Assembly (NCBI RefSeq): GCF_016026235.1
Contig: NZ_CP065613.1
Length of the DNA: 64,000 nt
Strand: one strand, 5' to 3'
DNA from: Escherichia coli
GTDB lineage: Bacteria; Pseudomonadota; Gammaproteobacteria; Enterobacterales; Enterobacteriaceae
Below, in pieces: positions 1-36,248 of the stretch. Both the position numbers and the translations under genes were made by a program. Below the pieces are notes generated by a model. That model was not told the origin of the DNA and made no database searches. It was given only the letters and a program-made list of their open reading frames with translations. Every line of letters begins with the position of its first letter. The stretch's first letter is position 1.

Positions 1-38
1 GGCGGGACATTTTCTGTAACAACCACGACCATGCTCAT
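1..38 (-). CDS. cas2: Cas2 (type I-E), 5' fragment only; ATG at 38..36 overlaps the cas1 stop (TGATG); continues beyond the left window edge
   Basis: Minus-strand reading from 38 gives M-S-M-V-V-V-V-T-E-N-V-P, matching the Cas2 N-terminus as I recall it; position immediately downstream of cas1. Confidence 0.5.
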   Translation of the reverse strand, partial: MSMVVVVTENVP

Positions 39-958
39 CAGCCGCGTCCTCGATGACCGCTATCGCCCAGCGTTTCAGGTTCGGGGATGGCTGGCGGTAA
101 CATATCCGGCGCAGGTTGTGGCGGTTCAATTTCACCTGCGGCAAGGACTTCCTCAATTAACGGTATTAATTTGCCCGTTAACTTAGTGCTACGGAAAATA
201 TCACGACAGGCTAATCTGACTTCTTTATCAGGTTCTGCGGGTTGCCTCGCCGCTATTTCAAATGCCTTTGGTACAACCGAATCAAATTTAATGATATCGG
301 CTATGTCATAAACAAATGAAAGCGGTTTGCCACTATGAATAAATCCAATAGCGGGCGCATATCCCGCGGCTAATACTGCCGCTTCAGAAATACCGTACAG
401 ACATGATGTGGCAGCACTGATGCAGCGATTCACAACATCGCCTTTTTCCCAGTCTTTAGGATCGTATTTGCGACCATTCCATTTCACACCATATTGTTTC
501 GCCAGTAATGCATAGGTCTGGCGAACGCGGGATCCCTCAATTCCCCGTAGCTGATCCACTGAACGGCGAGCTGGCGGTGGCTCACGAAAACGTAATTCAT
601 ACATTTTGCGCACCACCTTCAGGCGTAGATCTTCCGTTAAAGCCAGCTTTGCCTGGTAGAGTAATTTATCTGCCCGCGCCCCTCCGGGTTGTCCGGAAGA
701 GTAAACGCGAACGCCCGCTTCACCGACCCAGACCAGCAGTGTTCCCACCGTGGCGGCCAGATGCACCGCCGCGTGGGAAACTCTCGTTCCCGGTTCGAGC
801 ATAATGCAGGCGACCGATCCCACCGGAATGTGCGTGCGGATCCCGGTTTTGTCGATCAGCACGAAAGCGCCGTCCAGTACGTCGATTTGACCGTACTGGA
901 GGAAGATCATAGAGGTGCGATCTTTTAACGGGATCGGACTCAGTGGTACAAACGTCAC
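38..958 (-). CDS. cas1: Cas1 integrase (type I-E), 306 aa, apparently intact
   Basis: ORF-track protein MTFVPLSPIPLKDRTSMIFLQYGQIDVLDGAFVLIDKTGIRTHIPVGSVACIMLEPG... is close to E. coli YgbT/Cas1 (recalled); start overlaps casE stop. Confidence 0.95.
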   Translation of the reverse strand: MTFVPLSPIPLKDRTSMIFLQYGQIDVLDGAFVLIDKTGIRTHIPVGSVACIMLEPGTRVSHAAVHLAATVGTLLVWVGEAGVRVYSSGQPGGARADKLLYQAKLALTEDLRLKVVRKMYELRFREPPPARRSVDQLRGIEGSRVRQTYALLAKQYGVKWNGRKYDPKDWEKGDVVNRCISAATSCLYGISEAAVLAAGYAPAIGFIHSGKPLSFVYDIADIIKFDSVVPKAFEIAARQPAEPDKEVRLACRDIFRSTKLTGKLIPLIEEVLAAGEIEPPQPAPDMLPPAIPEPETLGDSGHRGRG

Positions 959-1605
959 ACCTCTGCTCCGGGTTTGATCAGCATCAGACCACAGCCGAAC
1001 GCGCGGCTTTTGCCATACCCCTGACTGAGACGTTGCAGAAATAACCCGGGATCGGTGACCGTAAGCATCCCCGTATAATCCACGCTACTGAACTGGATCA
1101 GTTGCCAGGAGTTTTCCCGCCGCAGTTGCTGTTGTCGGTAGGCATCAACCGAGGTATCCAGCAGTGTAAAACCGCTTCTCTCCCCCTGCGCTGCCAGCCA
1201 GTCCAGCGCCGCCTGTTGTTGATGCAACCAGACATCACTTCCTTCTGCCTGCCCCCTCATCTGCCGTTTCGCCTCCATCAGCAGATCGTGGCGCTTGCCC
1301 GCTTTACAGATTGTTGGATTCGCCCGCAGGTTGAAACAAAGTTGTTGTCCGGTACGCAGCTCGGGCACAAATGACCGGCATTCGATGGTGAACGTTTCAC
1401 TTTCCGCCGGGCGTTCCTGCGACAGTACAAAAAAGCGAAACGCGCCCTGGAGTTCTTCCCGACGATAAAGAAATTGCCTTTCTTTGCCGCCAGGGAAGAG
1501 ATCCCACAGCCACTGATGCATCACATATTCCCCGCGATCCACCAGATGCAGCAACTGCGCAGGCGAAAGCTGGCCGGTATGTAAGGTTATTCTTGAGAGG
1601 TACAT
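955..1605 (-). CDS. casE: CasE / Cas6e pre-crRNA endoribonuclease, 216 aa, starting MYLSRITL (internal start of the 262-aa track ORF)
   Basis: MYLS start as in K-12 CasE and C-terminal GCGLMLI motif resembling CasE GCGLLSL; AGGAGG-like RBS (rc of ggttcctcc) about 7 nt upstream of ATG at 1605; operon position. Confidence 0.8.
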   Translation of the reverse strand: MYLSRITLHTGQLSPAQLLHLVDRGEYVMHQWLWDLFPGGKERQFLYRREELQGAFRFFVLSQERPAESETFTIECRSFVPELRTGQQLCFNLRANPTICKAGKRHDLLMEAKRQMRGQAEGSDVWLHQQQAALDWLAAQGERSGFTLLDTSVDAYRQQQLRRENSWQLIQFSSVDYTGMLTVTDPGLFLQRLSQGYGKSRAFGCGLMLIKPGAEV

Positions 1606-2333
1606 GGTTCCTCCTTGCTGAGCCACGGCCCCTGATTGACGGTGCGTTCCCCAAACAGCCATTGCTGACGATTTAAAGGAACATCCCGGCGGCGCAATAT
1701 TTTGCTCGCGACCAGGCCGTCGTGCTCCCCTTCCCACCAGCATTCATCCTGAAGTTTCGGGAGTGCGATTTTCAGGTCGTGGAAATGCTCCTGATACTGG
1801 TGATATGCGTTACGTAAAACATCAGACGCGTTGCCTTCGAGCAGTAACGGCGCAAGTGGTAATGCCAGCGGATGACTTTTTCGCCCCAGATAAAGAGGAA
1901 AAACTGGATGGCGTAAACCGCCCTGCAACTGTTCGAGGCTGTAAGGCGCATCGGCTGTTGTTGCCACCGCCACCATCCACCAGGCGTCGGTGTAGTAGTC
2001 GCGCCGGGAGATAATCGCGCTCAGAAGATCAGGGTCGCTCAACTCTTCGCGACGGCTGAAATAACGCGCTTTACGCACCTCTTTTGGCATCTGGATCGTG
2101 TGATAATCCCGTGCCCAGCGCGGGTTACGGCTGGCGCAAACCACCAGTGAATAGTGGCGATTAAACGCGTTTAAGCGTTCGGTATCATCACGCCGAATCC
2201 CTACCCCGGCAGCCAGCAGACCCAGCAATGCTGAGCGCAAAGGCAGTTCATGGGTATGACGCACTTCGCCGGGGGCATCGACGCCCCAGGATGCCATTGG
2301 CCCATGAAGCTGAAAAATCAGATATTGGCTCAT
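1587..2333 (-). CDS. casD: CasD / Cas5e, 248 aa
   Basis: N-terminus MSQYLIFQLHGPMASWG matches the Cas5e motif (K-12 MRSYLILRLAGPMQAWG); overlaps casE by 19 nt. Confidence 0.8.
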   Translation of the reverse strand: MSQYLIFQLHGPMASWGVDAPGEVRHTHELPLRSALLGLLAAGVGIRRDDTERLNAFNRHYSLVVCASRNPRWARDYHTIQMPKEVRKARYFSRREELSDPDLLSAIISRRDYYTDAWWMVAVATTADAPYSLEQLQGGLRHPVFPLYLGRKSHPLALPLAPLLLEGNASDVLRNAYHQYQEHFHDLKIALPKLQDECWWEGEHDGLVASKILRRRDVPLNRQQWLFGERTVNQGPWLSKEEPCTSQE

Positions 2334-2343
2334 AAGCCGCCCC

Positions 2344-3399
2344 TTACGCGCAGATAAAGTCCAGCACGTCCTTCATGCTTCCCTGTTTGTTCATCACGTC
2401 AAAACTTGCGCATTCGGTCTTCTGTTCGTAGACCGTATTCATATTTTCGCGAAGCGTTGTAATACGCTGCACCGCCACGTCTAACTGCCGGGTGCCATTA
2501 ATGGGTTCATAGAAGGCCGCAGCCAGAGAACGCGGTTGATCGGTGCCTTTTTCCGCCAGCGCCCAGGAAGCATAGGCACGGCTGGCAAAGCTATTTTGTT
2601 TACCGGTTGGGGAAACTTTAAGCGCGGCTTCCGTAAAAGCGCGTATGGTCTGATTAGCTAACGCTTCGTCACCGCCGAGGTTTTCTACCAGCAGATCTTT
2701 ATCAATGCAGATATAGGTGTAGAAAAGTGCTGAACCGAATCCGGTTTCTCCGAGATGCCCGGCACCGGCATCTTCAGAGGCCTAGCGCAAATCATCAACG
2801 GCGGTGAAAAAATCATCTTCGACAATCGTTTCACTGACACCAAACGCATGCGCGACCTGGCAGGCGGCTTCAACATTAAACTCAGGTTTATTCGCCAGCA
2901 TACGACCAAACATAGCGATATCTACCGCTATACGGTCTTTACGTAACAACGCGAGATCTTCCTCTTTTGGCGCGCGCTTTTCTTCTGCCAGTTGATGGGC
3001 CAGCGCTTTTACGGCGTCAAATTCTGCCGGGCTGATATGAACTAATTGTTCAGTTTCGGCGTTAGTGAGCGGATCTTTTGGTTTTTTGTCGTTTTTAGCT
3101 TTCCCAAGATAATCCGCAATTTTTGCCGCCCATTCGATGGCTTTTTTCTCTTCGATGCCTTTCTCAATCAGGATAGTTGCCGCCTCACGCGCAATTCGCC
3201 CACTGCGAATACCAATATGGCCCGCCAGTGCCTGTTCAAAAAGTGCAGAAGTGCGCCACGCACGTTTCAGACTTTGTGAGGAAACGCGCAGACGCGTTGC
3301 ACCACCCAGTACCACAGTTTTTGGCGCACCAGTATCATCACGGTTAAGGTTGGCAGCAGGGTAAGCGGTTAACAAATGAAGCTGAATAAATGTTGTCAT
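2344..3399 (-). pseudogene. casC: CasC / Cas7e with an in-frame TAG at 2784..2782 (codon 206 of 351)
   Basis: Track ORF 2782..3399 ends ...FTAVDDLR then TAG; same frame continues ASEDAGAGHLGETGFGSALFYTYICIDKDLLVENLGG... to TAA at 2346..2344; both halves align to one Cas7e (K-12 ...FTAVDDLQEQGSAHLG...NLAQLQENLGG). Confidence 0.85.
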
Positions 3400-3413
3400 G
3401 AGATAGTCCTTTA

Positions 3414-3950
3414 TTAATTTTGTTCGTTATCGGCGTCGCCAGCCTGGTAATATTCCAGTGCCCAGCGGATACGGATAAATTCGGTTGGCCGCTGCTGGCG
3501 GCGGTGATGATTGAGCAGGTCGTCGCTCTCCTGGCACCAGCGGAAAATATCTTCTGCCAAAGAGATAAGATTGACGGAACCGTTTAATAATTTGACCGCG
3601 CGACGTAACTGACGCAGTAAATCATCCGGCGTTTTTACTGCCGACAGGCGAGTAAAACGCCCCTCCGACATTACCGCCGCCAGCTGCGCGGCAAAAGGCT
3701 GCCGTTCATCAATGGCTTTTACATTGGCGCTAACTGCGGCGACCAGCGCCAGTGCGGTAAAACGCCACTCTTGTGCTTCAATTTTCCACAAAGTGTGGGT
3801 CTGCATCAGCAGAGAACGAAACCCTTCTGACAAGCAAACATCATTAACCGTTGTGCTACGCCGCAGACTGGCACGATTGCCGCGTTTAGCCTGCAACTCT
3901 TCGTGCCATTTACGCAGCGTGGCTTTGTGCTCCTCTTTTACAATACTCAT
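3414..3950 (-). CDS. casB: CasB / Cse2 small Cascade subunit, 178 aa
   Basis: Size and position between casA and casC in a I-E operon; sequence diverged from K-12 CasB so the call rests mainly on synteny. Confidence 0.7.
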   Translation of the reverse strand: MSIVKEEHKATLRKWHEELQAKRGNRASLRRSTTVNDVCLSEGFRSLLMQTHTLWKIEAQEWRFTALALVAAVSANVKAIDERQPFAAQLAAVMSEGRFTRLSAVKTPDDLLRQLRRAVKLLNGSVNLISLAEDIFRWCQESDDLLNHHRRQQRPTEFIRIRWALEYYQAGDADNEQN

Positions 3951-5509
3951 TCAGCAGCCTCCTGCTTTTTCTCCCTGGCGGCGTTAGCATTTTGCTTCTC
4001 CGCTGATGTTGTAAAATATTTCTTGCGTGCGGTCATGACGCGTTCCAAATCAACGGGCTCATATGGATTGGTAAAGACACGATCGTCAAAATCCTGACGC
4101 GCGAATAACCACATTTCCTTTTGCCATTTACTGAGTAATTCGTCCGGATCCTGACCTTCTTCAATTTTGCGCACTAATCTCAGGAATCGATGCTGAGTTT
4201 TGTTCCAGAAGTCGATATCCACAAAACTAAAATCACCCCTTGCACCTTTTGGATCGGAGAACCATGCTTCTTTCAATGCACTCCGTAACAGACTTAGAAT
4301 CCGTGAAGCTGTTTGCGCAGCCAGCCGCAGCTTCGGTATCTGACCTTCTTTTTTATCGAGCAGCAGCGGGAAATGGTGTTCGTACCAACAGCGCGCTTTC
4401 ATGTTGTCGAAATCATAGCCAAATCCCCACAGGCCCACTTTTGCCTGCTTGAGACTGCTGGCATTGAAGAGTTTCACCACCAGCGCGGGAAGTTCCGTAT
4501 TGTTTTCTGATTTACCCGTTTCGATAAGGCCTAACCAGTCACGCCAGATTAAACCGCCCGGTTGTGGTTTAACGGAGTAAAACTCGCCACCCTCTTTAAG
4601 TGGTACACGGTAAGGCGTTAAGGGATGCTGCCACATGGCATAATTCGCACCGTAATTTTTGGTCGTCATCAGGCTCAGGAGCGCGTCGCTCTGCTCACCG
4701 CAAATATCGCAGTTGCCGACTGTCGTGGTATTAAAATCAATACGAATACGGCGAGGCATTCCCCAGTACGCCTGGAGTTTATTGACCTGCTCATCGGTTA
4801 CCACCGCACCGGCCAGTTCGCTGGTGCGCGTCGGGCCAAGCCAGGGGAAAACCAGATCGTCAAATTTTTTGGGTAGCGGTAAATCGGCTTCATCCTGCGG
4901 CATGACATTGATCCACAGTTTGCGCCACAAGGGAGTTTGTTGATTACCCTGATATTCCTGTAATTCAATCAGAGTGGTCATCGGCCCACCGCCGCGTAAA
5001 CCGGTGCGGTAGCCTTTGCCACCTGACGGCGCATTCAACTGTAGGGAGAACAGAGCTAACGCAGAACAATGTGGGCACAGGTATTCCGTTACACCACGCT
5101 TGATAAAGTGGTCTTTATTAAACTTCGTTGTTTGAGCGCCGGGAATCTCAGGCAGTAGCGAAGCGACCGGAACTTTATCTCCGGTGAGCGCCTCGAAATC
5201 CTGCATAAATGAAGGGGAATCTGGCCCAAACTGGAAAGCATGTTCTAATGACAGCAATGCTTCCCGTAGCTTTTCAGCTTCCAGTCCGTCTTCCCAGATA
5301 TCATCCCAACGACGATGATCTTTTGGCGCGAAGCTGGTTTGTAGTAGCCCCAGCAAAAACTGCCATACCGCACCCTGGAGATCTGCCCGCGGCGCAGAAA
5401 TATCGACAACATTTTCATCCGCCAGATCGACTGGCGCCAGTTTGCCTGTCGTTCCGTCTTTAAAACGAACGGGCAACCACGGGGTTGTCAGAAGTGAAAA
5501 CGAGTTCAT
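3947..5509 (-). CDS. casA: CasA / Cse1 (Cas8e) large Cascade subunit, about 520 aa; start taken at MNSFSLL (ATG 5509..5507) rather than the track start at 5578
   Basis: N-terminus MNSFSLLTTPWLPVR parallels K-12 CasA MNLLIDNWIPVR; GAGAGG RBS-like motif 6 nt upstream; alternative start MRMNSF at 5515. Confidence 0.8.
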   Translation of the reverse strand: MNSFSLLTTPWLPVRFKDGTTGKLAPVDLADENVVDISAPRADLQGAVWQFLLGLLQTSFAPKDHRRWDDIWEDGLEAEKLREALLSLEHAFQFGPDSPSFMQDFEALTGDKVPVASLLPEIPGAQTTKFNKDHFIKRGVTEYLCPHCSALALFSLQLNAPSGGKGYRTGLRGGGPMTTLIELQEYQGNQQTPLWRKLWINVMPQDEADLPLPKKFDDLVFPWLGPTRTSELAGAVVTDEQVNKLQAYWGMPRRIRIDFNTTTVGNCDICGEQSDALLSLMTTKNYGANYAMWQHPLTPYRVPLKEGGEFYSVKPQPGGLIWRDWLGLIETGKSENNTELPALVVKLFNASSLKQAKVGLWGFGYDFDNMKARCWYEHHFPLLLDKKEGQIPKLRLAAQTASRILSLLRSALKEAWFSDPKGARGDFSFVDIDFWNKTQHRFLRLVRKIEEGQDPDELLSKWQKEMWLFARQDFDDRVFTNPYEPVDLERVMTARKKYFTTSAEKQNANAAREKKQEAAE

Positions 5510-5606
5510 ACGCATCCTCTCGTAAAAAAGACCATCCCAGGTCGGTTGTCCATCTTTCCATCCTTTTCGGTGTATCAACTATTCAGAGAGTCCTGTCGCA
5601 GACATC

Positions 5607-8295
5607 TCAACCAACCTTGCCAATCAATCCTTCCGTAGCCGAATACCCGCAACTTTCGTCATCGTTGACTAAAATCACGTTTGCCATCTCCGGATCTTGT
5701 CGCTGTTCAATGCACCACAGCCTGAACGCCTCTCCCTCCAGTAAAGAAAACTCATCCCGATGTTTTTTCCACCAGCTTCGGCGCACTCTGACAACGCTCA
5801 TTTCCCATGCGTGAGCACCGGTGGCATAAGGCTTCACCACACCGTCAATACAGGTAGCCAGCCACAGGGAAACAGACTCCTCAGCCAGACGTGTCGACAG
5901 TTTTTCTGGGAGGTAATCGTTGATATTGGCGGCATAGCCGGGCCTGAAGTTCAGCACAAACTTTTTAGCCATTGCGCGATCACAGTAATATTTGCCCACT
6001 TGCTCCTGCTCGCTGCGGGAAAATCCTTCCGGCATTACCACGTCCTCACCGTAGACGGATTCAATAAGAAGCCGGGCTGCGTGTGGCATCTGAATAGCGC
6101 CTTGCCCACGCAGCACACGCTGCGTCAGCCAGATTCGCCCATGATCGGGGTAGACAAATGCACTGTTACGCATCGCACTGCCAAACCATTCATCACCCGG
6201 AGAGTCGTCCCAGACGGGTGCCAGAATCAGCAATTCAGGAGGGGAACGCTCGTCTTTTCCGTCACGCTTTAACTGACCATTAATATCGCGAATATGCCGC
6301 TGTAATCGCCCCGCTCGCTGGATTAGCAAATCAATGGGGGCCAGGTCGGAGATCATTTCGTCCATATCGCAATCAACGCTCTGCTCCAATACCTGAGTGC
6401 TAATAAGGACTTTTCCGGCACGCTGTGAGCTACCTTCTTTACCAAAGCGTGCCAGCGTTTCCGTTTCAATTCGCTGGCGATCGCTAAAAGCAAAGCGGCT
6501 ATGAAAAAGTGAAAGGCTGGAAGCAGGAATGACGCCGCGGGCAAGCAGCTGACGATAAACCTTAATAGCGTCATCGACAGAATTCCGGATCCAGGCGATG
6601 CATTTCCCCTGACTCACCGCCGATTCGATACGCGCAATACACTCTTGTTCGCTATGAAGCCAACCCACGCTCACGCTACGCTCAACGTCTTTGCGCGTCG
6701 CTACCCGGTGTGAATTCACATTGGATTTCGTAACGTGCGTCAGCCAGGGGTAATCATCCTTTTCAAGGAACGGAGCTTCTTGCTGGCCCTCTGTACCCCG
6801 CGCAAAGGCGGCGACGAGTTTGTCGCGCTGCTGTTGGGATAACGTAGCAGAAAGCAAAATGACGCTGTTTCCACCACGCGCCTGCCGCTCGATCAGCCCT
6901 TCAAGAATGCATGACATGTAAGCGTCACAGGCGTGGATCTCATCAGCCAGCAGGATTTTGTTACTCAGCCCCAGAAGCCGCAGATTATTATGTTTGAACG
7001 GCATCACCGCCATCATCGCCTGATCCAGCGTGCCGACGCCAATTTCAGCCAGTAAAGCCTTCTTGTTACTGTCGGCAAACCAGGCTGCACATCCTTGACT
7101 GAACGCTTGTTCATCCGGTTCTTCTGACCCGACTAAATCACCGGACCAGAGTGATTCATTAAAGCGGTCCATTAATGTACGGGCGCTGTGTGCCAGCACC
7201 AGGCTGGGGCGGGATTCTGGCGAATAGAAAGAAAGCCAGGTTTTGACCAGCCGATCGTACATGGCATCGGCCGTTGCCATTGTTGGCAGGCCAAAGCGCT
7301 TTACCCGCAGCCATCAACCTGTGCGCCAGGATAAGCGCCGCTTCTGTTTTACCTGCGCCAGTCACATCTTCCAGAATAAATAACTGTGGCCCTGGCTGGC
7401 TGATATCCAGATCCAGTACCTTTTGCTGTAATGGTGTCGAGTGCTCAATAAAAGGAAACAGCGTATTAATTCCGGTGAAAGGTGCGGTTTCTGCTTTTGG
7501 AGGAAAGACGGTTAAGGCGTTTTGTGCCTGAACTAAAGTTTTCTGCCAGTAATCTTTAATATTCATTGTCTGTGCGACGCGTGGAAAAAATCGCGTTGAC
7601 GAACCCGTCCAGTCTGCGAGTACGACTGTTGCAGAGATATACCAGGAAAGTTGTTTTAAAAGTTCAACGCCCTCGTCATCATCCCAGAATGTGGGAATCT
7701 CTATGAGCGGAAACAGTGCCTTGATTGCAAGGAGAAAATCTCGCGCGGCAGCTTTGTCTTCAGGCAGAAAATTATCCAGCTCATCAATACGGTCAGGTGG
7801 TCGACCATGATGCCCGGTAGTTATGGACATCCACATCTCTATTACACGTGTAAGTTTACGAGAAGAGAGTGAAGATGAAGGAAGCAACTCCTCACATTCA
7901 CTTAAATAATAATTCCACAGCCAGTAACCCAGCGTTGAATGAGAGATCTTTTCGTAATTCTTTCTGGAACCTTCCGGAATCTTGAGTTCAGGGGCCAGGT
8001 AAAGTTGCTGAAAAGAGCGGGCAAATTTTCCAATATCGTGCCAGCACAGCAACCAGGCGAAAAATTGAGCCGCCTGTTCCTTGTCAGAAATCCCTAATTG
8101 ACGAAAATAATCAGCCAGCCCGAAGCAATTTCTTTTAACCATTAAATAGCCCATCGCGGCTACATCCAGCGAATGCCAGCAAAGAAGGTGATAGTCGTCG
8201 CCCCCGTCTTTCTCGCCGCGTCGGGTTTTTCCCCAGAAATCAAAAAAAGTCACAATATTTTTATCCTTCAGTAAACTTAAAGGATATTTACGCAT
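5607..8295 (-). pseudogene. cas3: Cas3 HD-nuclease/helicase split by a frameshift into two overlapping ORFs (7159..8295 and 5607..7280)
   Basis: N-terminal ORF has HD motif (WHDIGKF) and Walker A (VTGAGKTEAAL); C-terminal ORF has DExH (LLADEIHACD); frames switch between about 7280 and 7316 (LMAAGKA... in one frame, ...FGLPTMATADAM in the other). Confidence 0.85.
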
Positions 8296-8476
8296 ATATT
8301 AAAAATTATCTGTGATATATATCAGCCAATAAAACATTTATATTGTGAATAAATTTATGATTTTCATTTGAAATTCATAATAATAAATAGAGACAATATA
8401 TTCACATAAAAAATATAAATTTAAAAAAGGGTGCAGGAGACCAAACCATCACAATTCAATACGCGGGGTTTTACCC
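8296..8476 (-). promoter_or_regulatory. Very AT-rich region upstream of cas3; probable promoter / nucleoid-protein-bound region
   Basis: About 180 bp of strongly AT-biased sequence directly upstream of the cas3 start; promoter function inferred from position only. Confidence 0.3.
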
Positions 8477-9770
8477 CTGAGGGATCCCCAGAAAATTTAG
8501 TAAACCATTATCATATTGGTATACCGTTGCTGTAGAACTTTCAGCCCTGCGTCAAGTGACAGTGTGTTTAGTATGAGTGGAGAATGTCGAATCACATTCT
8601 CCGCCAGTTTTAATAACGAGATGACTCGCCTGTGCTTCACTGTATTTGCCTGATATTTATGATGTATCCCTTTGTTTTCCAGGCTGAAACCGCTTAACCA
8701 CATAATGATACTGGCTAATGTTGCGATCAGACTCAATACCGTGACCCGCCCGGATGAATGACTGGCACCAAACCGTAGTCCAAATCCCCAGCGAGGATTT
8801 TTTTCATCCCTGAAATTTTGCTCAATTTGCATTCTACGGCTGTATAATTTCATTACCTGTTTTGGCGAGAACTCAGTACTGTTTGTGAAAATAAACCATG
8901 GTGATTTCCCGGCAGTACGAGCTTTAGCCGTCACCGATGGTCTGGTTGCTCTTTCCTTCGAGCGTTTAAATCTACGACCTTTAGGCTTACTTTTATAAAG
9001 ATAAAAATGCCCTTCATGTTGTGCATTTTTATCTCGACCCAGCAGGCCTTCACCTAAATAAATTGCTGTCGTTGATGCTTTTGTGCCTGAGTCCGACACC
9101 TTTTCCCAGCCATTACCAACATTGTAATAATGATTGCCCAGTACCCGGCAAATATAGGTCCAGCCACGGGAGCGGAGCTGTTGGAACCATCGCCCCTGAA
9201 AACCGGCATCTGTAATAACAATGACATCAGTCCCGGGGGAAAAGCACTCAGCAAGCGATTCCAGAAAACGCTCATGTACATCTGCATTCGCTGTCTGTGA
9301 TGATGGAACGACACAACTCATCAACGGTAAAGAACGCCCGTCACATGCCAGGCTTGCCCGCAAAAGCTGAAAACGAGAGGCATGATAAGCACTCCAGTCA
9401 ATGAGTATCACAACACGAGACATTCCCCGCGTAATCTTTTGGGTAATTCGCTGAAAAATGGTGGAAACCTCATTTTGCAAATGTCGATTCCCCAACAGTC
9501 GATCCACCCGCTTTATTTTGTTTTTAACTGATGCCGTACCGGTTAAATGACGCCCGATACTGGTAAGTGTGAGGGAAGCGCCATTTATTACAGCATTAGT
9601 TGCGTCAATCAGTGATTTTTGACGGTAAAGATGCAAAGGGGCCAGTATGTTGTTAAGGAAATTTTGGCATAATGAACGTGCAGGCATAGTGGTGATCTCC
9701 TTGAAATTGTTAGCACAATCAATTAGATCACATCTCACTATGCCTGTCTTGTTTTCTGGGGATTCCTCAG
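8477..9770 (-). mobile_element. IS4-family, IS10-like insertion sequence (about 1.29 kb); boundaries approximate
   Basis: Imperfect terminal inverted repeats CTGAGGGATCCCC (8477..) and GGGGATTCCTCAG (..9770) resemble IS10 ends; encloses an IS10-like transposase; the 9-bp flanks do not match (no target-site duplication). Confidence 0.75.
8497..9687 (-). CDS. IS10-like DDE transposase, 396 aa (start at MPARSL, inside the IS)
   Basis: Segments ...KIKRVDRLLGNRHL... and ...YSRRMQIEQNFRDEKNP...KYQANTV... closely parallel the IS10 transposase (KRIDRLLGNRHL, YSKRMQIEETFRDLKSP, HFQANTV). Confidence 0.85.
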   Translation of the reverse strand: MPARSLCQNFLNNILAPLHLYRQKSLIDATNAVINGASLTLTSIGRHLTGTASVKNKIKRVDRLLGNRHLQNEVSTIFQRITQKITRGMSRVVILIDWSAYHASRFQLLRASLACDGRSLPLMSCVVPSSQTANADVHERFLESLAECFSPGTDVIVITDAGFQGRWFQQLRSRGWTYICRVLGNHYYNVGNGWEKVSDSGTKASTTAIYLGEGLLGRDKNAQHEGHFYLYKSKPKGRRFKRSKERATRPSVTAKARTAGKSPWFIFTNSTEFSPKQVMKLYSRRMQIEQNFRDEKNPRWGFGLRFGASHSSGRVTVLSLIATLASIIMWLSGFSLENKGIHHKYQANTVKHRRVISLLKLAENVIRHSPLILNTLSLDAGLKVLQQRYTNMIMVY

Positions 9771-9990
9771 GGGCGATCCTCCAGTTCAAATATAAGGTCA
9801 GAACCTGCATGGTTTATATCAGACATCCCTTCACTCCTTTTAAAGTAAATTTGATCATCTGAATTAGTAAAATAAATTCCCACGAATTTGGGGCGCAGGA
9901 CGCCTTGAGAACGGCTTATCTCATTTTCGCAGTCACTATTTAGTCATCGTTCAAACAGAGAAACAGGCCGCCGAAGCGGCCATTTATTAT

Positions 9991-12861
9991 TTATATTTTT
10001 TCCAGCGCAGTGAGTATTTTCTCCGGTGTGAAATGCCATTCGCGTAACCAGATGCCGCATGCATCGTGAATTGCGGTAGCAATCGCCGGAGCTGCGCCAT
10101 TTACACCGATTTCCGAGATCGATTTCGCCCCGAACGGGCCGACTTTATCGTCGCTCGGCACCAGCACAGCGCGGAAATCACGCGGAATGTCACCAATTTT
10201 CGGTGCGCCGTAACTGCGTAAATCACGCGTTAACGGGTGACCTTCGGCGTCATAAATGATCTCTTCGCTCATACTGTGGCCGATAGCACGCAGGGTGGCA
10301 CCGTAGATTTGTCCCAACGCTAACTCTGGATTGACCGGTGTACCGCAGTCCAGCAAGGCGTAGAATTTATCCAGGCGGATTTCACCCGTACGCGTGTTGA
10401 CGGCAACTTCAGCGAAGTTTGCGCCATACGGGAAAGCGAAATCAGGCGTGATATAACTGCCAGTTCCCACCAGTGAACCAAAGCCGGTGCCGGTTTCGCC
10501 TTTATGGGCAATATCCCCGAAACTAACTTCGCCTTTCTTGCCGCGCACGACGCCCGGCGTTGCTAGTTGAACATCTGCCACTGGCTCACCCAACATTTGC
10601 GCGCCGTGGAACAGAATTTTCTCCCGCAGATTTTCCGCTGCCAAACGCGCCGCGTTACCCGAGAAGCAAGTACCGGACGAGGCATATGCGCCTTTATCAA
10701 ACAACGCATGATCGGTATCACCGGAGATAACATGCACGTCCTGCGGTGGGCAGTGCAGCACTTCTGCTGCCAGTTTCGTCACTACAGTATCCAGACCAGT
10801 ACCAATATCCGCACCGCCAGAATGAACGATAAAGGTGCCGTCCGATTCCAGTTTGATCATGCAGTTAGCCTGATCGATATCCGGGATACCCGATTTCTGC
10901 ATGATAATGGCGACGCCGCGACCGATGTGCCAGTCACCATTTTGCGGTTTCGGTGAAGACCATTGGATCATCTCGCGACCCTGACGCAGGATCTCTTCCA
11001 GTGCGCAGCTGGCGGCGGAAGGAACGGAGGTCGGCGCTTTACCTTCACCGATTGCACCGAGAATTTTCAGCTCTTGCCCTTCGTGTACCCGGTTACGTTC
11101 GATAATTTCCAGTTGGTCGATCTGTAACTGTTCAGCCAGTTCCGCTAATGCCATGGTGATAGCGAAGTTACCTTTCGGTGCGCCATAACCCTGATAAGCA
11201 CCATTTGGGCAAATGTTGCTGTAGTAGGTGGTGACCTGGAAATCGACGTTATCGCACGGATATAACGGCAGCGACAGCGCCGGTCCGTTACATGGTACGG
11301 TGAGTGAGTGGTTGCCGTAAGGGCCAGTGTTGGCGCGGAAATCCATCTTCACTGCCGTCAGGCGACCATCTTTTTTCGCTCCCAGTTTGACGGTGACTTT
11401 CGCGACGTGACGAGAGGTGTTAGCAATAAACTCTTCTTCACGGGTGTAGCGGAACAGGACCGGACGCCCGGTCACGCAGGTTGCCCAGGCGCACACTTCT
11501 TCCAGCAGGATGTCCTGTTTGGAACCAAAACCGCCGCCAACTCGTTCTTTAATGACATGAACTTTATGCTGTTTCATGCCCACGAGGCGCGCGACCTGGC
11601 GGCGTAAGTGCCATGGTACCTGGGTGGAGGCGTGGATAACCAGACGATCGCCGTCCATACGAGTAAAGCAGATATGTGTTTCAGTCGGGCACTGCTGCGC
11701 TTGCGTTGAGTTATAGGTTCGCTCAATGATCACATCGGCATCGGCAAAGCCTTTGTCCATATCGCCAATATGACCATGAATACTGGCGGCGATATTTTTG
11801 CGTGGACGAGAACCGATCGGGAAGTTGATGATCATATGCTCGCCGCGCTGGGCTGCATGGCTGTTATCGTCTTCCAGAGTATCTGGCGCACCAGCAACAT
11901 ACACAACCGGTTCATCGTGCACGACAGGCGCATCTTCCGCCATTGCTTCGTCGATCGACATTACCGGTTTAAGCACTTCATATTCAACGTCGATGAGCTT
12001 CAATGCTTCAAGCGCAATTTCTTCACTTTCAGCGACGACCGCAGCAACACGATCGCCGACGTGACGCATTTTCTTGCCGAACATACGGCGGTCAAGCGGT
12101 GACGGTTCCGGTGCGCTCTGCCCCCCCGGGGTATAGTAGATATCCGGGCAATTCAGATGAGTAATAACGTGAACGACGCCCGGTAAGGCTTCAGCTTTGC
12201 TGACATCCAGATGAGTAATCAGTGCGTGAGCGTGTGGGCTACGTAACATTTTAATGACGCAGGCGTCAGCCGTTACGCGGTCTTCAACATAGCAGGGCTT
12301 CGCCTGCACCATTTTTGCGGCATCAGTTTTAGGATAATGCTTACCAATGACTTCAAGGTCGTCACGGAAAGTCGGAGCGATATCAATGGTGGCCTGCGGA
12401 TTATTTTTACGTGCAACCGCCAGTTCAATGACCTGATAGTATTGTTGCCAGCCTGCATCGCGGCTGAACAAACCAGAAAGCGCGTCGTCGATCTCTTCGC
12501 GGGTAGGTGCGGCGATGCGATCGAGAAGATCGGTGATAATCAGAGCCGCAGCTGGATCGTTATAACCAGACTGCACCACGCCAACATCAACCATTGCCTG
12601 TTGAACCAGACTTAACTCGTTCCATTTGCCCAGAGATTCTGCGGTACGAATATCTGCCTTCTCTAACTGTGCGGCAATAAGCAAGGACGCGTTAACGATA
12701 TTACCGTTAAAGATAATTGCGTCAGAACCGGCAAACCCGAAGCCATCATCACTGTTGCGTACAGAGTGCATTCCCATGTTAAACAACAGCTTTTGCACGT
12801 TTTCGCCTGGATTAACGGTTAGCTCCTGAGGCGCGCCATTTAAAGTAAAGTGGATGATCAT
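9991..12861 (-). CDS. xdhD: Molybdopterin-binding xanthine-dehydrogenase-family protein with N-terminal 2Fe-2S domain, 956 aa
   Basis: Length and N-terminus MIIHFTLNGAPQELTVNPGENVQKLL match E. coli XdhD/YgfN as recalled. Confidence 0.9.
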   Translation of the reverse strand: MIIHFTLNGAPQELTVNPGENVQKLLFNMGMHSVRNSDDGFGFAGSDAIIFNGNIVNASLLIAAQLEKADIRTAESLGKWNELSLVQQAMVDVGVVQSGYNDPAAALIITDLLDRIAAPTREEIDDALSGLFSRDAGWQQYYQVIELAVARKNNPQATIDIAPTFRDDLEVIGKHYPKTDAAKMVQAKPCYVEDRVTADACVIKMLRSPHAHALITHLDVSKAEALPGVVHVITHLNCPDIYYTPGGQSAPEPSPLDRRMFGKKMRHVGDRVAAVVAESEEIALEALKLIDVEYEVLKPVMSIDEAMAEDAPVVHDEPVVYVAGAPDTLEDDNSHAAQRGEHMIINFPIGSRPRKNIAASIHGHIGDMDKGFADADVIIERTYNSTQAQQCPTETHICFTRMDGDRLVIHASTQVPWHLRRQVARLVGMKQHKVHVIKERVGGGFGSKQDILLEEVCAWATCVTGRPVLFRYTREEEFIANTSRHVAKVTVKLGAKKDGRLTAVKMDFRANTGPYGNHSLTVPCNGPALSLPLYPCDNVDFQVTTYYSNICPNGAYQGYGAPKGNFAITMALAELAEQLQIDQLEIIERNRVHEGQELKILGAIGEGKAPTSVPSAASCALEEILRQGREMIQWSSPKPQNGDWHIGRGVAIIMQKSGIPDIDQANCMIKLESDGTFIVHSGGADIGTGLDTVVTKLAAEVLHCPPQDVHVISGDTDHALFDKGAYASSGTCFSGNAARLAAENLREKILFHGAQMLGEPVADVQLATPGVVRGKKGEVSFGDIAHKGETGTGFGSLVGTGSYITPDFAFPYGANFAEVAVNTRTGEIRLDKFYALLDCGTPVNPELALGQIYGATLRAIGHSMSEEIIYDAEGHPLTRDLRSYGAPKIGDIPRDFRAVLVPSDDKVGPFGAKSISEIGVNGAAPAIATAIHDACGIWLREWHFTPEKILTALEKI

Positions 12862-13637
12862 ACGGCTTCCTCCCCAGCCTGTTGGCAGTCGGCATACAGG
12901 TCGGCTACCAGAACTCCCGTGATATAGCGTTTATAGGCCACGCTGCCCCGCAAATCTTCCTGCGGGAAAATGGCGTTGGCGACAGCCTGTTCAAGTGCAT
13001 TGCCTTCCAGATTTTGTTTTTCGACATCGTGCAGACGCAGTGCTTTACTGGCGACGCCATCCAGCGCAATTCGCATACCGTCGTGGTCTGTCATTGCAAC
13101 GGCTGCCGTCACGACGGTTAAACCTGCCTGAGAACGGCTAATTTTGCGGGTCGCACAGGTGCGATACGGATCTTTAATGATAATTTCGGTTAGCAGGCGA
13201 TCGCATGGGCAGGTCAGGTAGTCCTCGATTGACAGCGTTTCGCCGTTGCCAAAAACCAGTTCAGCATCCAGTGCTAGCAGGACGGGAAGCAGCACCGACT
13301 CTTCCTGCCGGGCAGCGATTTCACCACCAATGGTCGACTGATTACGAACATGGCGTGAGTAAACAAAACCGAGGGCTTCACGCAGTGCTGCAGGAATAAA
13401 TCGCGCATCACGCAGTGGCTGCAAGCGAGACATTGCGCCAATCCGCAGTGCACCGTTATCCCAGTCAACCCAGTCCAGTTCCAGATCCTGTAAGGAGATG
13501 GCAATCTTTTTATCGGTACGGGTTGGTGTAGCATTGAGTTTGCTGCCCCCGGCGAACCAGACGGCTTCATCCTGGTAGCGGCGCTTCAGTTCCAGCGCCT
13601 GTTCGACAGAGTCGGGCCTGAAAAATTGTTCAATCAT
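12858..13637 (-). CDS. ygfM: FAD-binding subunit of a molybdenum hydroxylase, 259 aa
   Basis: Size and position between ssnA and xdhD as in K-12. Confidence 0.85.
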   Translation of the reverse strand: MIEQFFRPDSVEQALELKRRYQDEAVWFAGGSKLNATPTRTDKKIAISLQDLELDWVDWDNGALRIGAMSRLQPLRDARFIPAALREALGFVYSRHVRNQSTIGGEIAARQEESVLLPVLLALDAELVFGNGETLSIEDYLTCPCDRLLTEIIIKDPYRTCATRKISRSQAGLTVVTAAVAMTDHDGMRIALDGVASKALRLHDVEKQNLEGNALEQAVANAIFPQEDLRGSVAYKRYITGVLVADLYADCQQAGEEAV

Positions 13638-35012: not shown

Positions 35013-35245
35013 ATTTATCTTCACCTCATCAATCTGCCATTTTTGCTGTATCTGATTTTCTATATTATCTTAATTCAATCGCTTCAGACTTTTCGCAATC
35101 GCCGTAATATTTCCCCATTTTGTTGTAAATAAAAAGCGTTTACGCAATGCAATCCTTTTGTAACAACCCAGGTAAAACACCTTATTTTCAAGTTGTTAAA
35201 TAAGTGGTTATCTACGCTTTTAACAAACGATTGATGGAATATTTT

Positions 35246-35301
35246 ATGAAAGGGAAATCTGCATTAACTCTTCTGCTCGCTGGTATATTTTCGTGCGGCA
35301 C
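35246..35301 (+). pseudogene. 5' fragment (18 codons) of an ORF with a signal-peptide-like N-terminus, cut by the IS1 left end
   Basis: ATG at 35246 gives MKGKSALTLLLAGIFSCG..., then the IS1 inverted repeat begins at 35302; identity not recognised. Confidence 0.3.
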
Positions 35302-35356
35302 GGTGATGCTGCCAACTTACTGATTTAGTGTATGATGGTGTTTTTGAGGTGCTCCA

Positions 35357-35632
35357 GTGGCTTCTGTTTCTATCAGCTGTCCCTCCTGTTCAGCTACTGA
35401 CGGGGTGGTGCGTAACGGCAAAAGCACCGCCGGACATCAGCGCTATCTCTGCTCTCACTGCCGTAAAACATGGCAACTGCAGTTCACTTACACCGCTTCT
35501 CAACCCGGTACGCACCAGAAAATCATTGATATGGCCATGAATGGCGTTGGATGCCGGGCAACTGCCCGCATTATGGGCGTTGGCCTCAACACGATTTTAC
35601 GTCACTTAAAAAACTCAGGCCGCAGTCGGTAA
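35357..35632 (+). CDS. insA: IS1 InsA, 91 aa
   Basis: Protein [43 protein letters not shown]... is the IS1 InsA sequence. Confidence 0.9.
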
Positions 35633-36054
35633 CCTCGCGCATACAGCCGGGCAGTGACGTCATCGTCTGCGCGGAAATGGACGAACAGTGGGGCTATGTC
35701 GGGGCTAAATCGCGCCAGCGCTGGCTGTTTTACGCGTATGACAGTCTCCGGAAGACGGTTGTTGCGCACGTATTCGGTGAACGCACTATGGCGACGCTGG
35801 GGCGTCTTATGAGCCTGCTGTCACCCTTTGACGTGGTGATATGGATGACGGATGGCTGGCCGCTGTATGAATCCCGCCTGAAGGGAAAGCTGCACGTAAT
35901 CAGCAAGCGATATACGCAGCGAATTGAGCGGCATAACCTGAATCTGAGGCAGCACCTGGCACGGCTGGGACGGAAGTCGCTGTCGTTCTCAAAATCGGTG
36001 GAGCTGCATGACAAAGTCATCGGGCATTATCTGAACATAAAACACTATCAATAA
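35551..36054 (+). CDS. insB: IS1 InsB reading frame (expressed as InsAB' by frameshifting)
   Basis: 167-aa ORF overlapping insA, typical IS1 organisation. Confidence 0.85.
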
Positions 36055-36069
36055 GTTGGAGTCATTACC

Positions 36070-36248
36070 CGTCGGGTCAATGTCAATGGTGGCGCGATCG
36101 CACTCGGTCACCCGATAGGCGCTTCCGGTTGCCGAATCCTGGTTTCTCTGGTTCATGAAATGGTGAAACGTAATGCCCGCAAAGGGCTGGCAACGCTTTG
36201 TATCGGCGGGGGCCAGGGCGTGGCATTGACCATTGAACGTGACGAGTA
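36070..36248 (+). pseudogene. yqeF: 3' remnant (about 59 codons) of a thiolase gene, truncated by IS1
   Basis: In-frame C-terminus ...[54 protein letters not shown] is a thiolase tail; sits upstream of kduI as yqeF does in K-12. Confidence 0.7.

Follow-up and report, generated by a model that had tools for sequence, protein, structure and literature searches.

The window analysed here, a 64,000-nucleotide stretch of an Escherichia coli genome (contig NZ_CP065613.1), begins within a type I-E CRISPR-Cas locus, beyond which lie an ISEc60 copy, a remnant of xanQ and xdhD. The features are given below by their coordinates in the window.

1-38, minus strand: 5′ end of cas2e, with its ATG at 38-36 and 12 codons in the window before the gene runs off position 1
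38-958, minus strand: cas1e, intact, 306 aa (TIGR03638, 380.6 bits, profile positions 3-268 of 269)
955-1605, minus strand: cas6e/casE, intact, 216 aa (TIGR01907, 288.8 bits, profile positions 1-207 of 208)
1587-2333, minus strand: cas5e/casD, intact, 248 aa (TIGR01868, 155 bits, profile positions 1-228 of 230)
2344-3399, minus strand: cas7e/casC pseudogene with a single in-frame amber at codon 206 (TAG at 2784-2782; TIGR01869 above cut-off)
3414-3950, minus strand: casB/cse2, intact, 178 aa (TIGR02548, 102.3 bits against a cut-off of 28.5, profile positions 2-166 of 167)
3947-5509, minus strand: casA/cse1, intact, 520 aa (TIGR02547, 606.9 bits against a cut-off of 70, profile positions 1-503 of 504)
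5607-8295, minus strand: cas3 pseudogene, in which the loss of 11 bp (AGGGTTTGTTT) near 7296 shifts the frame and leaves open reading frames of 378 aa and 557 aa
8296-8473, no strand: AT-rich native region upstream of cas3, of which 178 bp are retained, the alignment with E. coli 100181 reaching position 8477 of the window
8474-9773, minus strand: ISEc60 (IS4 family), 1300 bp with 22-bp terminal inverted repeats (NF033591, 360 bits)
9774-9826, minus strand: 5′ remnant of xanQ, 17 codons
9991-12861, minus strand: xdhD, beyond the xanQ remnant

The assignment to type I-E is supported by the presence of both signature subunits, Cse1/CasA and Cse2/CasB, with fully covered profiles, by the expected gene order casA-casB-cas7-cas5-cas6, and by Cas1e and Cas2e, next to which lie a leader and an array with repeats of 29 bp and spacers of 32 nt. 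CasA has the length of the annotated E. coli protein. Cas7e is a member of the set by homology though truncated by the amber codon, and Cas3 is recognizable by homology as an HD and SF2 helicase protein but its integrity is lost through the 11-bp frameshift. An earlier note on this DNA had described a full-length cas1, a cas2 start, uninterrupted casE, casD, casB and casA, and disrupted casC and cas3, all of which agrees with our annotation.

To read the sequence left of position 1, we used the public E. coli assembly GCA_900449985.1 (L003), which is 100% identical to window positions 1-13399. It holds a complete cas2 (L003 13362-13655) coding for 97 aa with 99% identity to Cas2e of E. coli 100181, followed by a 96-bp leader, an array of seven repeats and six spacers, and iap. 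Leader and array thus lie directly left of position 1, where the earlier note had placed them, and the complete cas2 of L003 speaks against a disruption of cas1 or cas2 outside the window, which would have contradicted its reading. The Cas1e product has 99.3% identity to an intact Cas1e of E. coli and conserves the catalytic residues E141, H208, D218 and D221, and the leader matches that of a strain with an intact system at 96 of 96 positions. No structural defect is present in Cas1, Cas2, the leader or the six-spacer array.

The window and L003 belong to a clone whose members have flanks that are 99.98-100% identical, and in which arrays of seven, six and three spacers occur, the leader-proximal spacer being common to all. 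The differences among sub-lineages consist of internal spacer loss only, and no new leader-proximal spacer was found among the compared arrays of the clone. Five spacers are private to the clone, and the system therefore acquired spacers at some earlier time; it may have been active until shortly before the amber arose. Searches with the clone's seven spacers found no protospacer among 50,697 phage records, the five private spacers had no match in 5426 E. coli genomes, and among plasmids only the ancestral terminal spacer was matched, to chromosome-sized or CRISPR-bearing records; thus neither a self-target nor a known target emerged from these collections. A megablast search with the whole leader and array returned mostly repeat matches, and none of the Rfam families attained its gathering score in the 20.6 kb of the extended locus.

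The two lesions in the interference genes are simple. The cas7e translation equals the intact E. coli Cas7e WP_000206438.1 except for one internal stop, which results from a C-to-T change at a Dcm site (gcgCCAGGcc in the intact gene, gcgCTAGGcc in the window) converting Gln206 to amber. None of the 2504 genomes holding the region, in a set of 5426 complete E. coli genomes, carries this T. In cas3, the 11-bp deletion is the sole internal indel relative to E. coli 100181 and to the sister genomes L002 and L005, both of which have an intact Cas3 of 899 aa, and it is absent from all 2728 genomes holding this region in the same set of 5426. The frameshift falls inside RecA1, 15 residues past the Walker A motif; beyond it, a tail of 45 residues is read out of frame. 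The HD domain (TIGR01596) is found in the 378-aa frame and the helicase core (TIGR01587) in the contiguous 557-aa frame, an arrangement that resembles the naturally split Cas3′ (helicase) and Cas3′′ (HD nuclease). We rejected such a natural split because the break lies within RecA1 rather than at the HD/helicase boundary and because the deletion is missing from the sister genomes; unlike the split form, the cas3 of the window is a frameshifted gene rather than two complete in-frame genes. Cas5e also carries a derived substitution, S32L (codon 32 is TTG in the window and TCG in L001, L002 and L005). Substitutions within the clone in the cas genes, four nonsynonymous and two synonymous, are tiny numbers that are consistent with relaxed constraint. 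With a truncated Cas7e and a frameshifted Cas3, crRNA-guided interference is predicted to be absent.

The Cas proteins are strongly diverged from those of K-12, as had been suggested, CasE (27% identity), CasD (34%) and CasB (no significant alignment) more so than Cas1 (84%); the remaining values are 86% for Cas2, 30% for CasC, 21% for CasA and 25-31% for Cas3. Comparison with other I-E variants identifies the genes as the widespread second E. coli cas-E set, which 3256 of the 5426 complete genomes match at ≥90% nucleotide identity. On these identities, the divergence is that of the common non-K-12 E. coli set and nothing unusual. A Shigella origin was also considered; in NCBI, the exact proteins bear the label Escherichia coli.

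The ISEc60 copy is 99.7-100% identical to annotated copies of this element, and its transposase gene (8497-9687) reads toward cas3. The copy is a hybrid located at an inversion breakpoint: one of its flanks is the hok|IS|cas3 junction of L002, the other the xanQ::ISEc60 junction of FDAARGOS_943, a sister strain. From 9771 on, the window runs colinearly with K-12, starting at K-12 position 3,024,406 and descending, and this part is inverted with respect to cas3. An inversion of ~137 kb thus took place by recombination of the ISEc60 near cas3 with a second copy in xanQ. Between 5400 and 8600, matches to promoter and terminator consensus sequences were no more numerous than in shuffled sequence.

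Comparison of the clone members reveals a graded series. L002 and L005 have ISEc60 upstream of cas3 and the cas7 amber, with cas3 intact; the window and L003 have, in addition to the IS and the amber, the cas3 deletion and the inversion; in FDAARGOS_943 the whole locus is gone, leaving hok, ISEc60, the terminal degenerate repeat and iap. In the latter strain, an IS-adjacent deletion took everything from cas3 to the last spacer. L004, a genome of another lineage with a second haplotype, carries the same cas7 amber without the IS, and its cas1 is interrupted by two nonsense codons. On this second haplotype the amber had an independent origin, a recurrence that the Dcm context of codon 206 may explain.

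We interpret the locus as a recently pseudogenised type I-E system with the common non-K-12 cas set, in its normal position between iap and cysH, in an IS-rich E. coli clone, a reading to which we assign a probability of about 85%. The C-to-T change that makes codon 206 of Cas7e an amber instead of Gln lies at the methylated cytosine of the Dcm site (CCAGG to CTAGG). It would remove the C-terminal 145 residues of Cas7e, the Cascade backbone subunit, so that Cascade could presumably not assemble. Later, in the sub-lineage of the window, the 11-bp deletion frameshifted cas3 in the first RecA domain and probably abolished the helicase-nuclease. ISEc60 was by then in place 178 bp upstream of cas3; it then recombined with the xanQ copy and inverted about 137 kb, as the hybrid flanks show. 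That the adaptation module is intact would reflect the small target it offers to mutation and the youth of the decay rather than any purpose for which it is kept, and the endpoint of the process can be seen in the whole-locus deletion of FDAARGOS_943. The series within one clone, up to loss of the whole locus, lends strong support to the earlier suggestion of a system in decay.

Neutral decay and selection for the loss of interference look alike in sequence, and it is as part of the reading given above that decay is probably the better account. The competing proposal is that selection rather than drift inactivated interference while the adaptation genes lay outside that pressure; for example, the clone may have had a plasmid or prophage to keep, or may have escaped autoimmunity after read-through from ISEc60 de-repressed cas3 and Cascade. 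Both hits do fall in interference genes, the cas7 amber did arise independently on a second haplotype, and the ISEc60 transposase gene, pointing toward cas3, could in principle drive it. However, two hits that both fall in the 7.25 kb of interference genes, with none in the 1.2 kb of adaptation genes, are what chance predicts (P = 0.73), and the recurrence of the amber would be accounted for by its Dcm context. Furthermore, a cas3 knock-out gives no extra benefit once cas7 is dead, L004 has the amber without any IS, and the spacers offer neither a self-target nor a known target in the E. coli, phage and plasmid sequences searched. We consider selection unlikely.

A different view of codon 206, where the amber allele arose at least twice on different haplotypes, is that its Dcm site is more than the place of a single neutral lesion: natural E. 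coli populations might repeatedly switch Cascade off there, in a methylation-dependent and possibly reversible way. Reversal is conceivable since Vsr can also restore CCAGG from CTAGG. Such a switch appears very improbable. At Dcm sites, deamination of 5-methylcytosine yields T:G mismatches that Vsr counteracts (PMC2715241). The idea of a Dcm hot spot was tested by an exact search for Cas7 products ending at other sites where one transition creates a nonsense codon. For Dcm sites it found a 278-aa product in one contig and no 180-aa product, and, for non-Dcm sites, truncations at 55, 89, 117 and 135 and none at 249, 267, 287 and 304, counts that do not separate a hot spot from selection, being confounded by contig-end fragments and clonal sampling.

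It could also be supposed that the locus persists for adaptation or for a non-immune role, with Cas1-Cas2 kept for spacer uptake without interference or Cas1 for DNA repair, and with Cascade and Cas3 dispensable. The intact cas1, cas2, leader and first repeat and the conserved catalytic residues of Cas1 would fit this idea, which the earlier note had raised as an alternative to decay. Against it, the sub-lineages show internal spacer losses and no leader-proximal gain, nothing of cas1, cas2 or the array is left in FDAARGOS_943, the cas1 of L004 contains two nonsense codons, and the small target size accounts for the intact genes, in line with the P value of 0.73. A retained role thus finds no support here, and we regard it as very improbable. 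Finally, there is next to no chance that the disruptions are sequencing or assembly artefacts, since over ten independent assemblies, from NCBI and from Logan read sets, share the amber and at least six of these the identical deletion, and since loss of 11 bp in non-homopolymer sequence is atypical of sequencing error.

The decay of E. coli I-E loci is already known biology, and the E. coli I-E system is largely silent. The locus is best seen as a well-resolved example of I-E erosion, adding little beyond bookkeeping, in which the steps from point mutation to small deletion, IS-mediated inversion and complete IS-adjacent deletion can be followed within one clone. Only the occurrence of the first knock-out at a Dcm methylation hot spot, and its recurrence on a second haplotype, is mildly new; it suggests that a bias in mutation may influence which of the cas genes are the first to be lost.

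Among known systems, the closest is that of E. coli 100181 (NZ_CM128595.1), which has the same non-K-12 set, gene order, iap-adjacent position, 29-bp repeat (GTGTTCCCCGCGCCAGCGGGGATAAACCG) and 96-bp leader, with 93-99.7% amino acid identity. The window differs from it by the cas7 codon-206 amber, the cas3 11-bp deletion, the ISEc60 copy 178 bp upstream of cas3, the inversion that puts xanQ′-xdhD in place of hok-cysH, and a short array of 6 rather than 12 spacers. K-12 MG1655 (casABCDE12, cas3) shares the architecture, the locus, a near-identical repeat, two old spacers and the similar Cas1 and Cas2, whereas identity falls to 20-34% for its Cascade subunits and Cas3 and its CasB is unalignable, placing it in a different cas-E group; such groups have been horizontally exchanged (Touchon and Rocha 2010, PMC2886076). 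In the same study, 17 of the 40 I-E systems from Escherichia and Salmonella were partial, with frequent cas3 and cse1 pseudogenes and a repeat number that dropped with decay, and inactivation of cas genes by IS elements has also been described (PMC10359306). The window resembles these degraded loci of Shigella, Salmonella and E. coli in its cas3 and Cascade-gene pseudogenes beside intact neighbours, in the involvement of an IS, in its shortened array and in the complete loss of the locus in a relative. Unlike in loci with IS-inactivated cas genes, the IS interrupts no cas gene here: inactivation came from one point mutation and one small deletion, and the IS mediated an inversion in the window and, in the sister strain, deletion of the whole locus.

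The locus at window positions 1-8295 is best read as a type I-E system in decay, one of the two readings that the earlier note proposed, and it is found within one clone in graded states that run from an insertion sequence plus an amber codon to deletion of the whole locus. NCBIfam profiles identified a complete type I-E gene set, and the ORF listing placed all features of this interval on the minus strand:

38-1, minus: cas2e, ATG at 38-36, 12 codons in the window, running off position 1
38-958, minus: cas1e, 306 aa, intact
955-1605, minus: cas6e, 216 aa, intact
1587-2333, minus: cas5e, 248 aa, intact
2344-3399, minus: cas7e (casC), 351 codons, one internal stop
3414-3950, minus: casB, 178 aa, intact
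3947-5509, minus: casA, 520 aa, intact
5607-8295, minus: cas3, frameshifted, ORFs of 378 aa and 557 aa
8474-9773: ISEc60 (IS4 family), 1300 bp, 22-bp inverted repeats, transposase reading toward cas3

Each intact gene aligns with its profile over the full length. Among complete E. coli genomes, strain 100181, with every cas gene annotated as intact, gives the best match to window 1-8500 (96.6% identity), and the alignment contains a single internal indel, an 11-bp deletion in cas3 near 7296. In cas7e we observed no indel, and in-frame translation reveals a single internal stop at codon 206 (TAG, window 2782-2784) in a protein otherwise identical to the intact allele. The site reads gcgCTAGGcc in the window and gcgCCAGGcc in the intact allele, so the Q206 codon has undergone a C-to-T transition that replaced the inner C of a Dcm site. 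Deamination of 5-methylcytosine at Dcm sites produces T:G mismatches that are normally repaired by Vsr (PMC2715241). Since the next in-frame start codon past the amber is codon 308, no substantial C-terminal Cas7 fragment is possible. The cas3 frame shifts after ...AHRLMAAGKA, 15 residues beyond the Walker A motif GAGKTE, and continues as a 45-residue out-of-frame tail; of the two ORFs, the 378-aa N-terminal one carries the match to the HD-domain profile and the 557-aa C-terminal one that to the helicase-core profile. A natural Cas3''/Cas3' split was rejected because the break falls inside RecA1.

The disruption of casC and cas3 noticed earlier is thus explained by these two lesions, and sequencing error does not account for them, as both occur in L003 (GCA_900449985.1, 100% identical to window 1-13399) and, with 0-2 mismatches, in four further assemblies and read sets (L006, L007, L009 and L010). 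A fifth, L011, is identical over its covered part, which includes the amber and leaves the cas3 deletion site outside. Neither lesion was found in 5426 complete E. coli genomes, where the best match over the cas3 site is 90.2%, reflecting the gap, and that over the cas7 amber 99.0%, a single mismatch. An exact-sequence look-up placed the 205-aa truncated Cas7 on many contigs.

L003 is a contig of 4.56 Mb, and its proteins carry the label Escherichia coli. It also extends the locus left of position 1, where leader and array lie as predicted. Its cas2 is full length (97 aa). The stop codon of cas1 and the ATG of cas2 overlap, and the Cas1 catalytic residues are conserved. The AT-rich 96-bp leader is identical to that of strain 100181 at 96/96 positions, and the array comprises six canonical or near-canonical 29-bp repeats, one degenerate terminal repeat and six 32-nt spacers, followed by iap. 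Arrays of the clone hold 7 spacers (sister genome L005), 6 (window and L003) or 3 (sister genome L002). The leader-proximal spacer is identical in all of them and they differ by internal deletions only; therefore no spacer has been acquired since the amber-bearing common ancestor, and acquisition took place earlier in lineage history. Five of the spacers are unique to this clone, and searches of phages, plasmids and the 5426 complete E. coli genomes detected no target for any of these five.

Over the 6.5-kb housekeeping flank between iap and truD, L003, L002, L005 and the sister strain FDAARGOS_943 share 99.98-100% identity, versus 97-98.5% against unrelated E. coli. L002 and L005 carry the IS and the cas7 amber with an intact Cas3 (899 aa), and L002 is not inverted. 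The window and L003 additionally have the cas3 deletion, an inversion and a derived nonsynonymous change, S32L, in cas5e (TCG to TTG, window 2239), restricted to the window sub-lineage; codon 32 encodes Ser in L002, L005 and the comparison sequence L001 alike. In FDAARGOS_943, which shows 1 mismatch in the 6.5-kb flank, everything from cas3 through the last spacer is deleted beside the IS, leaving the order hok, ISEc60, degenerate terminal repeat, iap (L016 16056-17355, NZ_CP065615.1). This genome has 36 ISEc60 matches and many other IS elements, and its rpoS and fhlA are frameshifted. The cas-gene substitutions within the clone (4 nonsynonymous, 2 synonymous) fit relaxed constraint, though the count is too small for a test.

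Upstream of cas3, 178 bp of native sequence remain before ISEc60. Past it, in place of the hok-cysH seen in other E. coli, lies the beginning of xanQ (17 codons) followed by xdhD, and from there the sequence runs colinear with K-12 from 3,024,406 downward. The junction in L002 is cysH-hok, ISEc60, cas3 (IS at 3617-4916), and FDAARGOS_943 carries xanQ::ISEc60 at exactly the window's junction. The window's ISEc60 has one flank of each type (hok/cas3 and xanQ::IS) and lacks a matching target duplication; the arrangement is therefore an inversion by recombination between two inverted copies. The ISEc60 within 8474-9826 is thus a recombinant of two copies, represented by L002 3617-4916 and L014 1501-2800, and the inversion spans about 137 kb in K-12 coordinates, disrupting xanQ and placing xdhD beside cas3. 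Elsewhere, an IS1 at window 35022-36070 (insA/insB ORFs 35357-36054) beside tRNA-Gly(CCC) replaces about 14.4 kb of K-12, from yqeF to ygeQ, including the ETT2 remnant.

The same amber occurs on another haplotype, L004 (codon 206 at 6918-6920; the corresponding codon of L015 is at 7116-7118), which shares 95.5% identity with the window across the locus. Its cas7 shows 24 differences, and those closest to the amber lie 373 bp upstream and 5 bp downstream. Strain A30, the closest complete genome to L004, has CAG at codon 206 on the same haplotype, hence the amber arose at least twice; A30 cas3 bears its own, different nonsense mutation at codon 493. A further sequence, L008, may represent a third origin or recombination. 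Nineteen operon codons give amber by a Dcm-site transition, and Coulondre and colleagues are said to have located lacI amber hot spots at CCAGG sites in 1978. Further truncated Cas7 products were looked up as well, and such variants proved common in data from E. coli and Shigella.

The earlier note also considered retention of the system for a non-immune role. Interference genes span 7254 bp versus 1215 bp for cas1 and cas2, and for two random inactivating hits the probability that both strike interference genes is 0.73. In L004, cas1 is interrupted by two nonsense codons, and FDAARGOS_943 lacks cas1 and cas2 entirely. Taken together, these observations give non-immune retention no support.

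The strong divergence from the K-12 set noted earlier holds: identity to K-12 is 84-86% for Cas1 and Cas2 and 20-34% for the Cascade subunits and Cas3, and CasB gives no significant alignment. All Cas proteins are 93-99.7% identical to those of strain 100181, and 3256/5426 complete genomes match the cas gene set at at least 90% nucleotide identity; the divergence from K-12 is thus ordinary. Two old spacers, one along with a variant repeat, are common to the window lineage and K-12, consistent with the old spacers that Touchon and Rocha (2010, PMC2886076) described across several cas-E groups of Escherichia and Salmonella, groups that are incongruent with the species tree. The unit at L003 13813-13873, spacer GCAACGACGGTGAGATTTCACGCCTGACGCTG with its variant repeat (…GCCAGCAGGG…), is also the penultimate unit of the K-12 array (L012), despite the low identity between the two strains in Cascade and Cas3. 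Against strain 100181, cas7e differs at 2/1056 nucleotides and the whole locus by 3.4%, and the Cas3 N-terminus has only 92.8% protein identity. Such strongly mosaic divergence along the operon suggests recombination within the cas cluster.

Loss would have proceeded from the Dcm-site amber in cas7 to the cas3 frameshift, with IS-mediated rearrangement alongside the cas lesions and whole-locus deletion in the sister strain FDAARGOS_943. This course matches earlier descriptions of I-E systems in Escherichia and Salmonella (PMC2886076), and is related to IS-driven CRISPR inactivation (PMC10359306).
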